A stretch of DNA of 64,000 nt, from contig JANNQV010000032.1 in NCBI GenBank assembly GCA_031400935.1, positions 62,001-126,000 on the forward strand. Direction: 5' to 3'. The position numbers and the translations under genes are program-made. Position 1 is the first letter of the stretch. Every line of letters begins with the position of its first letter. Source of the DNA: Armatimonadota bacterium. Lineage in GTDB: Bacteria; Armatimonadota; Fimbriimonadia; Fimbriimonadales; Fimbriimonadaceae. Below the pieces are notes generated by a model that was not told the DNA's origin, made no database searches, and worked only from the letters and a program-made list of their open reading frames with translations. Positions 27,109-30,170 of the stretch are shown piece by piece.

Positions 27109-28257
27109 ATGAGCGCAACAACAATGCATCCAAACTACAGCCCTGGTCTCGAAGGTGTGATCGGGGGCGTCACGACTATTTCCGAAATTGTCAGCGAAAC
27201 GAGCACGCTGATTTATCGCGGATACGACGTGCATGATTTAGCTAGCCGAGGCTCTTTCGAGCAAACGGCATATCTTTTACTGTTCGGCAAATTGCCTAAC
27301 CAAACTGAACTTGTAGCATTCACAAAAACTCTTGCTGAAGAACGTGAGGTACCCGAACAAGTTTATATGGCTCTAAAGCAGCTTCCTGCAAATACGCATC
27401 CGATGGACATTGCAAAGGTTGGGTTCGCGGCTTATGCGCCGTTCGACCCAGACTACGCTGCTGTTGCGACTGACATGGAAGCGAATCGCCGCAAAGCTGT
27501 TCGAATTCTTGCGAAAGCGAGCACCATTGTAGGAAACGGCCACCGAATTCGAAAGGGCCAAGAGCCGTTGAAGCCGAACCCGAGCCACACAATTGCACAG
27601 AACTTCCTCTATCTCATGTCTGGCGAATCTCCAAACGAGCGAACCGCACATGTTTTGGACAGTTCCTTGACGCTGTATGCTGAACATGGGTACAACGCTT
27701 CAACTTTTGCCTGCCGAGTAACGGTTGCAACCCTTAGCGACATCTATAGCGGAATCGTAACAGGAATCGGGACGCTTCGAGGCACGCTTCACGGCGGCGC
27801 CAACGAAGAAGCCATGAAGATGATCATGGAAATCGGTTCTTCAGACAAGGCAGAAGTTTGGATTCGAGACGCACTCGCAACCAAGAAGAAGATCATGGGA
27901 TTTGGCCATCGCGAATACAAAAAGCGCGACCCTAGAGCGATTTACCTCACAAAGGTTGCAAAAGAGCTTTGCATCGAAAAGGGACAAACGGAATGGAGCG
28001 CCATTGCGGACATTCTTGAGAACGTAATGGAAACCGAAAAGGGAATCTATCCGAATGTTGATTTCCCTGCTGCTTATGCTTACTACGTTTTAGGTATTCC
28101 GATCGACCTTTACACGCCGATCTTTGTAATTGCGCGAGTGAGCGGCTGGTCGGCGCACGTGCTTGAGCAGCTTGCGAACAATCGCCTGATTCGCCCGGCT
28201 TGCATCTACGAAGGGCCAGAGCACGAAACCTGGGTGCCCATCGAAGAAAGGGTCTGA
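27109..28257 (+). CDS. prpC: 2-methylcitrate synthase / citrate synthase
   Basis: GLEGVI, YAEHGYNASTF, LHGGANE, IMGFGHR, YPNVDF, RLIRP; adjacent to prpB. Confidence 0.85.
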   Translation: MSATTMHPNYSPGLEGVIGGVTTISEIVSETSTLIYRGYDVHDLASRGSFEQTAYLLLFGKLPNQTELVAFTKTLAEEREVPEQVYMALKQLPANTHPMDIAKVGFAAYAPFDPDYAAVATDMEANRRKAVRILAKASTIVGNGHRIRKGQEPLKPNPSHTIAQNFLYLMSGESPNERTAHVLDSSLTLYAEHGYNASTFACRVTVATLSDIYSGIVTGIGTLRGTLHGGANEEAMKMIMEIGSSDKAEVWIRDALATKKKIMGFGHREYKKRDPRAIYLTKVAKELCIEKGQTEWSAIADILENVMETEKGIYPNVDFPAAYAYYVLGIPIDLYTPIFVIARVSGWSAHVLEQLANNRLIRPACIYEGPEHETWVPIEERV

Positions 28258-28360
28258 TACTTTCAATTTAAAAGAAGAATAGGACCTATAGGGCAAATTA
28301 GTCCTTTAGGTCCTATTTGACCTACCATGCCTATTTTTTGAATCAGCTATAGCTGCTTTC

Positions 28361-28410
28361 AAACAAAGAAAAGCGCGTTGATTTAGACCGAAGTCAATTC
28401 CAACGCGCTT
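28361..28410 (-). terminator. Intrinsic terminator ending the putative ncRNA
   Basis: Stem AAGCGCGTTG/CAACGCGCTT with inner GAC(TTCG)GTC, followed on the minus strand by TTCTTTGTTT. Confidence 0.75.
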
Positions 28411-28870
28411 CCTTCTGCTAGCCGTTACAGTTACCGAAGTATCTGCCGTTCTAACAAAACTCAGTTTTTGTTGCAAGGTATCGCGACCGAAGTCGTGCTA
28501 CTGGTCCGCAACGCCTACTAAGTATCGGTCATCCGCAGGTCGAAAGAGGAAACCTCTCCCGACCCTGCTTTGGCTCGTTGACAAGTCAACCTGCCTCTGC
28601 ATGCGGAAACCGCATTGTCTCTTGTTGCAATGAAAGCGAACCTTGACCGCTTTCATGCTACTTTCGCCGGGACAAGATTCAAGAGAACCCTGCGAGGTCG
28701 CAAGAAACATTTGCTCTTTTGGCCGTCTTAACCGTGCCTCTGGCGGTCCGAAAACCGTTTGCAAAACTCGTTTGCTCTGAGCGCGTGCTTTGGCTGATCA
28801 GGACCGTGATCCCTTTCTCTCCGTTTTGATTACTCGCTTCGGAGGAGACTTTCGTCTCTCGCTTGGCACG
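28362..28870 (-). ncRNA. Putative large (~500 nt) highly structured non-coding RNA of unknown family
   Basis: Upstream promoter, more than 10 hairpins including three C(UUCG)G loops plus GAAA and CUUG loops, G-U pairs that work only on the minus strand, 3' intrinsic terminator, no credible ORF. Confidence 0.75.
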
Positions 28871-28875
28871 TGAAT

Positions 28876-28904
28876 ACTTTATCCCATTGGAAACCGTTTG
28901 TGAA
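28876..28904 (-). promoter_or_regulatory. sigma70 promoter for the putative ncRNA
   Basis: TTCACA (28899-28904), 17 nt, TAAAGT (28876-28881); A-tract UP-like element upstream. Confidence 0.65.
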
Positions 28905-29048
28905 GTACTTTTTTTATGAGTTTTTCACCATTGGCGGTGGAAAAGTGTGGCAAAAGCCCTTTGCAGATTCGCACGATTTACAACAAAATGGTGGAAAACT
29001 TTTGAAAAAAAGTGACGATTACCCTTGACAAGATTTTGTTCGGCGTTT

Positions 29049-30170
29049 CTACCTGGTCGTGAAAGACCACTTTCGGCTGATGTCTTCGCCTTGAGGAGAC
29101 ATCGCGATCACCGAAACTTGATAGGTTGTCCTAGGTTTCAAAGGCTTTACAGGGATCAAAAACACAGAGTCTGTTAGCTGAGTGTCGTTTTCGGGAGAAT
29201 TGACAGCGAACTCAACCGATGTTTCCAAAGGGAGTTCAACTAGCGAAGCTTCCTGAAATCGAATCGGTTTGGGGTCAGAAGTGGCTCGACTAAAGACAAT
29301 TGGATAACCGGTTGGCGTAGAAAGGGCTTTGTGAATTCGTAGCGGATTGGGTCGCTCATTGCCATTCCAAGATAACGGAGCCCCTCTTTGCCCATCGCAA
29401 GGATGAACAATTGTTTCTGGAGTGCGAATGTCGCCGAACACGATAACAAGCCTTTCACCAAACTGCGAACCACCTGCTTCGACTTCGCCGCCTGCCAGAA
29501 AAGCTTGGCGGTGATAGGGCGCACCTATTAGCAGATCAAGTGCCTCATCCAGGTTTGCTCGTCCAGACTGAACCACTTCCATGCTTCCACCCACATAGCC
29601 AAATGCGTTTAAACGGTCGTCGGGAGTGATTCCAACAAAATTCGGCCTTCCTTCACCTTGATAATGGCCAGTCAGCCGGTTTTCGGAAAGGTATTTGGCA
29701 TGTTGACTTGCGGCTGCACACATTGATCGGTTGGCTGTAACAGGTCGCAAGCCAAGTGAAGCTCTAAAATCGTTTACTTTTTTCAAAACAAGTTCTTGAT
29801 CGGAACTTGTTTCAGGAATTGTGGTTTGAGCATTTGCTACAACATCCACGGTCCAATCTTTGCGAACGGTGATTTCGTCTGAAGACGTGGCCCCCATCTC
29901 GATTTTATGCTCGCCTTGTCGAAGTTGCGAAGGAGGTTGGGCTTCTATTCTGCGGAAGTTCTCAACGTATCTAGACGGAATCTCGACACCATCAACTTTG
30001 CACCAGACTTTTGTTACAACTGAACCTTTGTCGCCCCACACTTGCCACTGCAATAAGGGTGTGGAAATCATAAGCTGACCTTTCGGCCCAGCTGCACGGC
30101 TCCAAAGACTGGCATGAGCCACAGAAGTAGCCAGCGAGAGTCCTAGTAACAAATATCGGCAAATCCGCAT
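29049..30170 (-). CDS. Secreted CAP/SCP-domain protein with Ig-like flanking domains
   Basis: Signal peptide; VNDFRASLGL..AAASQHAKYL..GH..APYHR; PLKPRTTYQV..WSFTT. Confidence 0.85.
   Translation of the reverse strand: MRICRYLLLGLSLATSVAHASLWSRAAGPKGQLMISTPLLQWQVWGDKGSVVTKVWCKVDGVEIPSRYVENFRRIEAQPPSQLRQGEHKIEMGATSSDEITVRKDWTVDVVANAQTTIPETSSDQELVLKKVNDFRASLGLRPVTANRSMCAAASQHAKYLSENRLTGHYQGEGRPNFVGITPDDRLNAFGYVGGSMEVVQSGRANLDEALDLLIGAPYHRQAFLAGGEVEAGGSQFGERLVIVFGDIRTPETIVHPCDGQRGAPLSWNGNERPNPLRIHKALSTPTGYPIVFSRATSDPKPIRFQEASLVELPLETSVEFAVNSPENDTQLTDSVFLIPVKPLKPRTTYQVSVIAMSPQGEDISRKWSFTTR

Follow-up and report, generated by a model that had tools for sequence, protein, structure and literature searches.

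A new family of large, modular non-coding RNAs in the Fimbriimonadaceae, with a DnaA-box-like dyad at its promoter

What is encoded on the minus strand between a gene for a CAP-domain protein and a convergent methylcitrate/citrate synthase gene in a member of the bacterial family Fimbriimonadaceae (phylum Armatimonadota)? The window analysed here is a stretch of 64,000 nucleotides (GenBank assembly GCA_031400935.1, contig JANNQV010000032.1, positions 62,001 to 126,000), for which a preliminary description, made from the sequence letters, had proposed at 28362-28870 (-) a stand-alone, highly structured RNA in the size class of OLE, ROOL and GOLLD. We report that this locus is a chromosomal, vertically inherited gene of a new non-coding RNA family; that the family is genuinely one of non-coding RNAs we regard as virtually certain. 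The coordinates given earlier for the individual sequence features proved correct, and what had been overlooked was a kissing-loop core, a modular arrangement of domains and a dyad resembling a pair of DnaA boxes (Table 1).

Table 1. Features of the RNA locus and its neighbours in the window
Feature	Positions	Strand	Basis or remark
RNA gene, ~509 nt	28362..28870	-	folding, homologs, covariation; RNA-library contigs span 28386-28861
Domain 1, junction of several hairpins that the 5' end closes	28784..28870	-	RNAalifold on 5 homologs; 5' alignment
Domain 2, three hairpins (28761-28775, 28744-28757, 28721-28738)	28713..28783	-	alignments, folding, covariation
Domain 3, conserved core, three-way junction with invariant GUAG	28621..28704	-	comparative alignment, covariation
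Predicted 5-bp loop-loop kiss, 28683-28679 with 28646-28642	28642..28683	-	pairing in 30 sequences
Domain 4, a further junction module similar to the core	28535..28615	-	junction motif in homologs
Domain 5, lineage-restricted, conserved motif 28520-28497	28412..28525	-	motif comparison
Intrinsic terminator: long stem, internal loop, tetraloop cap, then U tract	28362..28408	-	folding, homologs
88-aa ORF, judged a non-gene	28498..28764	-	codon changes against G001, no Pfam match, 1-nt insertion
Sigma-70-type promoter (-35, 17 nt, -10)	28876..28904	-	motif scan; arrangement common to homologs
Inverted pair of DnaA-box-like 9-mers upstream of -35	28921..28944	-	dyad counts, homologs; DnaA binding inferred
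Upstream neighbour, CAP-domain protein	29049..30170	-	gave access to homologs; does not always accompany the RNA
Convergent neighbour, 2-methylcitrate/citrate synthase, after prpB	27109..28257	+	annotation

The gene is single-copy in the host genome, and its 509-nt product folds at -188.6 kcal/mol (z -4.85), a value that none of 100 shuffled sequences equalled. For the 88-aa open reading frame within it, comparison with the copy from the same genus (G001) reveals no coding constraint: 2 synonymous and 9 non-synonymous codons differ, with changes at the three codon positions of 5/4/4, whereas the CAP gene of the same two genomes differs in 125 synonymous and 38 non-synonymous codons, with changes of 33/19/142. 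Identity to G001 is 93% for the RNA as against 83% for the CAP gene. The frame has no Pfam match, and two RNA-library contigs carry a 1-nt insertion at 28516, inside it. Past the synthase gene lies a separate long hairpin (28275-28319), covariant in G001 and likely the terminator of the synthase gene.

None of the known RNA families accounts for the locus. Rfam 15, whose families covered include ROOL, GOLLD, OLE, raiA, HEARO, introns and 6S, gave a tRNA as its sole match in the window; at the RNA locus the best score at E <= 10 was 21 bits, and none reached the gathering score. Ten homologous loci yielded no relevant match either, eight of them giving 0 matches at E <= 3, so that neither the locus nor these homologs has a significant family match. 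The earlier exclusion of RNase P RNA and tmRNA, argued from missing hallmarks, is confirmed by the true, model-matched copies of both on other contigs of the host genome (C65 and C55), and the small SRP RNA also lies elsewhere. Rfam found no 6S RNA in this genome (assembly 96% complete); we rejected the locus as the missing 6S since no 6S-like rod is predicted for 28362-28870.

Homologs were hard to recover by direct comparison. Searches at the level of BLAST returned the same-genus copy as the sole homolog, three weak matches within the family being rejected because their positions lie in coding DNA, and early pattern scans of GTDB gave that copy, chance matches and nothing else. The sequence downstream of 30 CAP orthologs led to distant RNA copies in two genomes (G027 and G173), and a profile built from four copies recovered another (G022) at E 2e-40. 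A sequence model found matches in 34 of 150 genomes of the host family; a covariance model of the core, 127 positions long, matched in 35 of the 150, distributed over 13 of 50 genera, with two matches in each of three genomes. Outside the host family this model matched none of the 137 genomes of the phylum sample, and weak matches to 3 of 24 genomes from sister families of the order (E 0.002-0.42) were rejected as coding sequence. About three quarters of the sampled family genomes, closed ones included, have no core match, so the RNA is either dispensable or too diverged to be recognised in them; the counts come from the sequence model and the model of the core, and members without a core are thus undercounted. 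A GTDB-wide pattern scan gave 23 loci, of which 19 were confirmed and 18 are labelled Armatimonadota, mostly Fimbriimonadales. One full core match (L138) lies in a record labelled as an archaeon, likely a mislabel. From metagenomes 54 of 55 pattern loci were confirmed, and after removal of near-duplicates the distinct homologous loci number 76. Diverged copies near the window lineage occur in RNA libraries (runs X1, X14, X15, X20 and X24), and none was found among GTDB representatives.

The window copy itself belongs to a long-branched lineage, which is why a full-length profile built without that lineage missed it under default filters; its homology to the family is argued from synteny, the core and domain 5. 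Although the 3' halves are barely alignable, 25 of 32 full-length copies measure 486-525 nt.

Inheritance appears to be vertical, since the RNA tree tracks host genus, with 12 genus changes as against 21.9 when shuffled. The neighbours differ between genera, falling into 75 protein clusters, the largest of 6, and the 56 of the 75 cluster representatives that were scanned are ordinary metabolic genes, with no phage, integrase or transposase family among them. BLAST found no match in phages and plasmids, and none of the at least 234 loci from viral scans (0, 17, 97 and 120 loci, the last scan being too loose and covering 7 of 64 parts) was scored by the model. The patchy distribution might still be read as that of a mobile-element or prophage remnant or cargo, a leader regulating in cis or a gene for a small protein, a set of readings that we consider exceedingly improbable and largely refuted: the neighbours and the tree speak against mobility, a leader would be at odds with the terminator that closes the RNA and with the lack of any constant downstream gene, and the one candidate protein, the 88-aa frame, is non-coding.

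The structure shared by the homologs is centred on a three-way junction, defined by the top covarying columns of a MAFFT alignment of 30 core sequences. Its stems are a closing one (28704-28701 with 28624-28621) and two arms, 28698-28688 with 28671-28660 and 28658-28650 with 28635-28627. Over 35 pairs, 88% of the alignment cells are paired as against 77% in shuffled alignments, and 25 of the 35 pairs show double changes; none of 500 shuffles did as well, and slid controls gave 33-42%, although the score is somewhat overstated, the same 30 sequences having served to derive the structure and related copies not being independent of one another. With homologs that covary in this manner, 25 of 35 pairs having changed on both sides, and no matching Rfam family, the original proposal of a stand-alone large structured RNA in the OLE/ROOL/GOLLD size class stands. 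The loops of the two arms are predicted to kiss through five base pairs, 96.7% of cells being paired across the 30 sequences, with CUUGG facing CCAAG in most. Three of these pairs are invariant, and one has undergone a compensatory G-C to A-U change, a single event in the window lineage; in diverged copies, read by eye, the complementarity of the loops is kept or shifted.

Three of the pairings first assigned give way to others once homologs are considered. The 5' end, thought to pair with 28738-28733, pairs instead with 28788-28784, and 28738-28736 pair with 28723-28721; this third hairpin of domain 2 covaries, with double changes in 4 of 4 pairs. The covarying stems of the core take the place of a hairpin assigned to 28691-28702, and that at 28453-28472 is probably replaced by a long-range pairing of 28522-28517 with 28465-28460, identified by eye, in part from a variant at 28462 in RNA-library contigs. 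Nine of the hairpins in the preliminary description fold on their own, whereas the C(UUCG)G element at 28434 does not fold in isolation.

Domain 4 repeats the theme of the core, its junction motif occurring in 45 of 76 homologs as against 3.8% of shuffles. Its caps are tetraloops in the window lineage and potentially pairing loops in other lineages; a first test for covariation of this second kiss gave no signal (4.46 for own pairs and 4.40 for crossed ones), and a second gave a weak one (p 0.025), computed from 12 non-independent pairs with two loops mis-extracted. The motif of domain 5 was found in 9 of the 76 loci and in two further genes, one of them core-less. From these comparisons, the RNA appears as a string of separable domains that have been duplicated, swapped or lost between genera: 1) In G132 (L124), domain 2 is present as a tandem repeat. 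2) In G161 (L120), there are two tandem RNA genes. 3) In G025 (L465), promoter, 5' domains, domain 5 and terminator are present and the core is absent, so that the core model missed this gene. 4) In genus g17, the 3' halves are shorter. Among other members, two genomes of genus g18 (G018, L313; G156, L314) have second RNA copies elsewhere in the genome, the core of G169 (L466) has diverged so strongly that the core model missed it, and the RNA copy of G025 adjoins a tRNA gene.

Junction-plus-kiss folds are common, the purine riboswitches being one example. The bacterial Alu core, in the excerpted account of PMC4231752, combines a three-way junction, two hairpins joined by five consecutive loop pairs and a short conserved linker, and the predicted topology of our core equals it. 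The RNA might then be a free-standing, Alu-like modulator of the ribosome, whose core would dock at the elongation-factor site and slow translation under the control of DnaA; the repetition of the junction in domain 4 would suit such a role, as would the host SRP RNA, which matched the S-domain part only of the large-SRP model. We nevertheless regard this as quite unlikely, given that 1 of the 30 core linkers has the defining UGU, that the large-SRP model misses the locus at E <= 1 and cmscan does so at E <= 10, that the junction lengths are unlike those of Alu, that G025 does without a core, and that such folds are widespread. Equally doubtful is a broader version, in which a DnaA-controlled, very abundant RNA of repeated Alu-like kissing junctions binds ribosomes or forms a ribosome-binding particle; if true, an RNA would connect the initiation of replication directly with translation capacity in these bacteria, and it would be without precedent both as a free-standing regulator with an Alu fold and as a large ornate RNA belonging to the DnaA regulon.

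Both ends of the transcription unit suggested earlier are supported. The -35 and -10 elements lie at 28904-28876, where taken alone they are at chance level (2 found, 1.6 expected), and their spacing recurs in homologs. The terminator was not listed by a simple scan, yet the segment 28368-28408, followed by a U tract, folds at -17.1 kcal/mol, and the homologs end alike. Upstream of the promoter, the two boxes of the dyad can be compared with the DnaA box consensus TTATnCACA (as excerpted from PMC5742627), which they match exactly in many homologs and nearly in the window, where one box is off consensus. A DnaA-box-like 9-mer about 16 nt upstream of -35 is present in 46 of the 66 loci with sufficient upstream DNA, a few of them mis-assigned, many of the loci without a box being chimeric contigs, and the inverted partner is present in 26 of the 66. 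In the host genome the dyad occurs three times only, before dnaA, before the RNA gene and before a coiled-coil gene with a DivIVA-like match below cut-off. A strict pattern of dyad and -35 was found in 33 of 175 genomes, the reversed control giving 3 matches, and among 18 loci fetched by this pattern there are six more RNA-like genes. The other host dyads lie at C59:3465 (dnaA) and C20:1602-1633 (coiled-coil gene, L308), a further DnaA-box-like site lies near 28991, and in G105 (L470) the dyad precedes an ORF that resembles ftsZ by eye. Together dnaA, the DivIVA-like gene and the ftsZ-like ORF possibly outline a DnaA regulon in the family, to judge from their upstream sequences; the dyad could alternatively be bound by another dimeric regulator.

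The same dyad and promoter also stand before a different RNA-like gene of 230-330 nt in four genomes (G077, L461; G078, L462; G085, L463; G090, L464). It is made up of small hairpins arranged in strings, with loops of the UUCG type recurring among them, is present as two tandem copies in three genomes and has neither an Rfam nor a core-model match; its sequence would suit either a degenerate relative or a second new family. A dyad in G012 was rejected as a family member, the surrounding DNA being unrelated and mobile-looking.

The dyad and the AT-rich DNA upstream also raise the question of whether the selected element is the DNA itself, as an origin or DnaA-titrating site, with the RNA serving replication locally. 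In two closed genomes the gene lies far along from dnaA (1.25 Mb in G173 and 3.09 Mb in G073), and in G173, where skew is weak, there is no GC-skew switch at the locus, making an origin unlikely. Moreover, the neighbourhood moves between genera, and covariation of the RNA type requires selection at the level of the transcript; a role for the DNA is, in our estimation, very improbable. The weak skew of G173 (C1) reverses at about 0.9-1.0 Mb and close to dnaA, with unequal arms, and no large DnaA-box cluster typical of an origin was seen in the host genome (assembly 96% complete).

Transcription is supported by public sequence runs. Parts of the stretch are present in 24 runs, which come from 18 studies and nearly all derive from freshwater; 17 of the runs are recorded as RNA. 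In eight runs from eight studies, contigs (strand not given) extend over the body of the gene and end at its borders, the matches outside the gene being short, mostly below 90% and confined to the conserved synthase gene. The predicted transcript thus finds support in RNA-library contigs restricted to the gene (28386-28861), which give neither strand, ends nor level; the bare flanks are a weak hint, because the runs were chosen by the RNA stretch and have no DNA control. Summed contig depth reaches 6.7e5 in one run, a poor measure of abundance, with the library type guessed. Of the metagenome contigs (54 in all), the native promoter is preserved in 18, the RNA body is joined to foreign upstream sequence in 28, and 8 start inside the body; 26 of these 36 non-native contigs start within 33 positions of the predicted RNA start, as would fit chimeric cDNA assemblies of an abundant transcript.

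What might such an RNA do? We tentatively favour an abundant RNA of several domains that acts in trans, is coupled to DnaA and serves proteins as a scaffold or sponge, as proposed for raiA and OLE, an account that we consider quite possible without calling it probable. A strong sigma-70 promoter would give rise to one stable RNA of about 500 nt ending at its own terminator, and DnaA, by binding the upstream dyad, would couple its level to growth and the replication cycle. The domains would fold independently, as tetraloop-capped stems on A-rich linkers and a three-way junction locked by the loop-loop kiss, each offering one conserved surface for binding. If the number of such surfaces matters, this would explain why domains and genes are duplicated and why no domain is universal. 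Action in trans is suggested by the RNA having its own promoter and terminator amid neighbours that vary by genus, and raiA offers a precedent, being described in the excerpted text of PMC12968392 as a single-locus, very abundant, trans-acting RNA within RNPs. Among candidate partners, CsrA occurs in 169 of 175 genomes, whether or not they carry the RNA, and TROVE does not track the RNA in 5 genomes; both were rejected on co-occurrence, as their distributions do not follow that of the RNA.

A more specific version, a CsrA sponge of the CsrB/RsmZ kind, is very improbable for the same reason. Such sponges carry many GGA motifs in loops, and GGA is mildly enriched in the homologs (mean 15.3, with 11.9 expected), in several loops, in a family and host that possess CsrA. 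The window copy, however, has 8 GGA where 9.5 are expected, with zero of them unpaired, and a conserved tertiary core is not known from CsrB.

An RNA-only multimer or cage, in the manner of ROOL and GOLLD, would dispense with proteins altogether, being held together by kissing loops and by A-minor contacts of GNRA loops. Covariation-predicted kisses of ROOL and GOLLD turned out to be intermolecular (as excerpted from PMC12286853), and several properties of our family are in keeping with this: its length is held within narrow limits despite the barely alignable 3' halves, GNRA is the commonest class among 418 predicted loops, and domain 4 has a self-complementary hexamer loop in 31 of 75 loci. 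The window copy lacks this hexamer loop, though, and in two cases non-palindromic loops complement the neighbouring loop, favouring an ordinary loop-loop pair; the loss of whole domains fits a fixed cage poorly, and the collections examined revealed no phage association. We hold a cage to be unlikely, and prefer the protein scaffold or sponge.

Few large ornate RNAs are known from bacteria, and the structures recently obtained for ROOL, GOLLD, OLE and raiA did not settle what these RNAs do. The present family adds at least 76 distinct homologous loci usable for modelling, and its natural deletion, duplication and swap variants are ready-made domain experiments. The dyad shared with the dnaA promoter is a concrete regulatory lead absent from the other ornate classes, and the family explains deep, unannotated reads in freshwater RNA libraries. 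The literature searched describes no structured RNA of Armatimonadota, though the family might be entered in large candidate lists such as PMC8040213 and PMC10690425; by term look-up, the taxon names are absent from the main texts of PMC11109978 and PMC8632094 and from one supplement of the latter.

Comparison with known classes places the RNA nearest to several of them and within none. Like raiA and OLE, as these are portrayed in the excerpted parts of PMC12968392 and PMC12286853, it is chromosomal, usually at one locus, highly structured with pseudoknots and of unknown function, and it shares with them a stand-alone chromosomal gene with a covarying ornate structure. Both of those RNAs are abundant according to the same excerpts; ours may be as well, given its deep RNA-library contigs, though these carry no same-run yardstick of tmRNA or RNase P RNA. 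The Rfam models of neither match it; raiA is about 200 nt long and found in Bacillota/Actinomycetota, as against about 500 nt and Fimbriimonadaceae here, a constant neighbour like OapA of OLE is missing, and the DnaA-box-like promoter dyad and swappable domains belong to our RNA. The likeness to ROOL (550-659 nt) and GOLLD drawn in the preliminary description holds for the size class and fails for the phage link, none having been found here. The RNA resembles them in its numerous tetraloop hairpins and its kissing loops, in having a conserved half and a variable one, in dispensability and in occurring in lake data, but has no Rfam match to them and is absent from the phage, plasmid and viral collections examined; they often lie near tRNA islands, whereas it lies beside one tRNA only, in G025. 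With the SRP Alu domain it has in common a three-way junction, a 5-bp loop-loop pseudoknot (predicted here) and a short conserved linker; it differs in lacking UGU in 29 of 30 cores, the S domain and any model match, and the host carries a separate small SRP RNA. The smtA / Soda Lake RNA (PMC11109978) is also large (>350 nt), lineage-restricted, covarying and of unknown function, but is confined to Thioalkalivibrio and tied to smtA, a distinction drawn from its description and not its sequence. Within the loosely defined class of large ornate RNAs, the RNA is best regarded as a new family, set apart by its swappable domains and its DnaA-box-like promoter.
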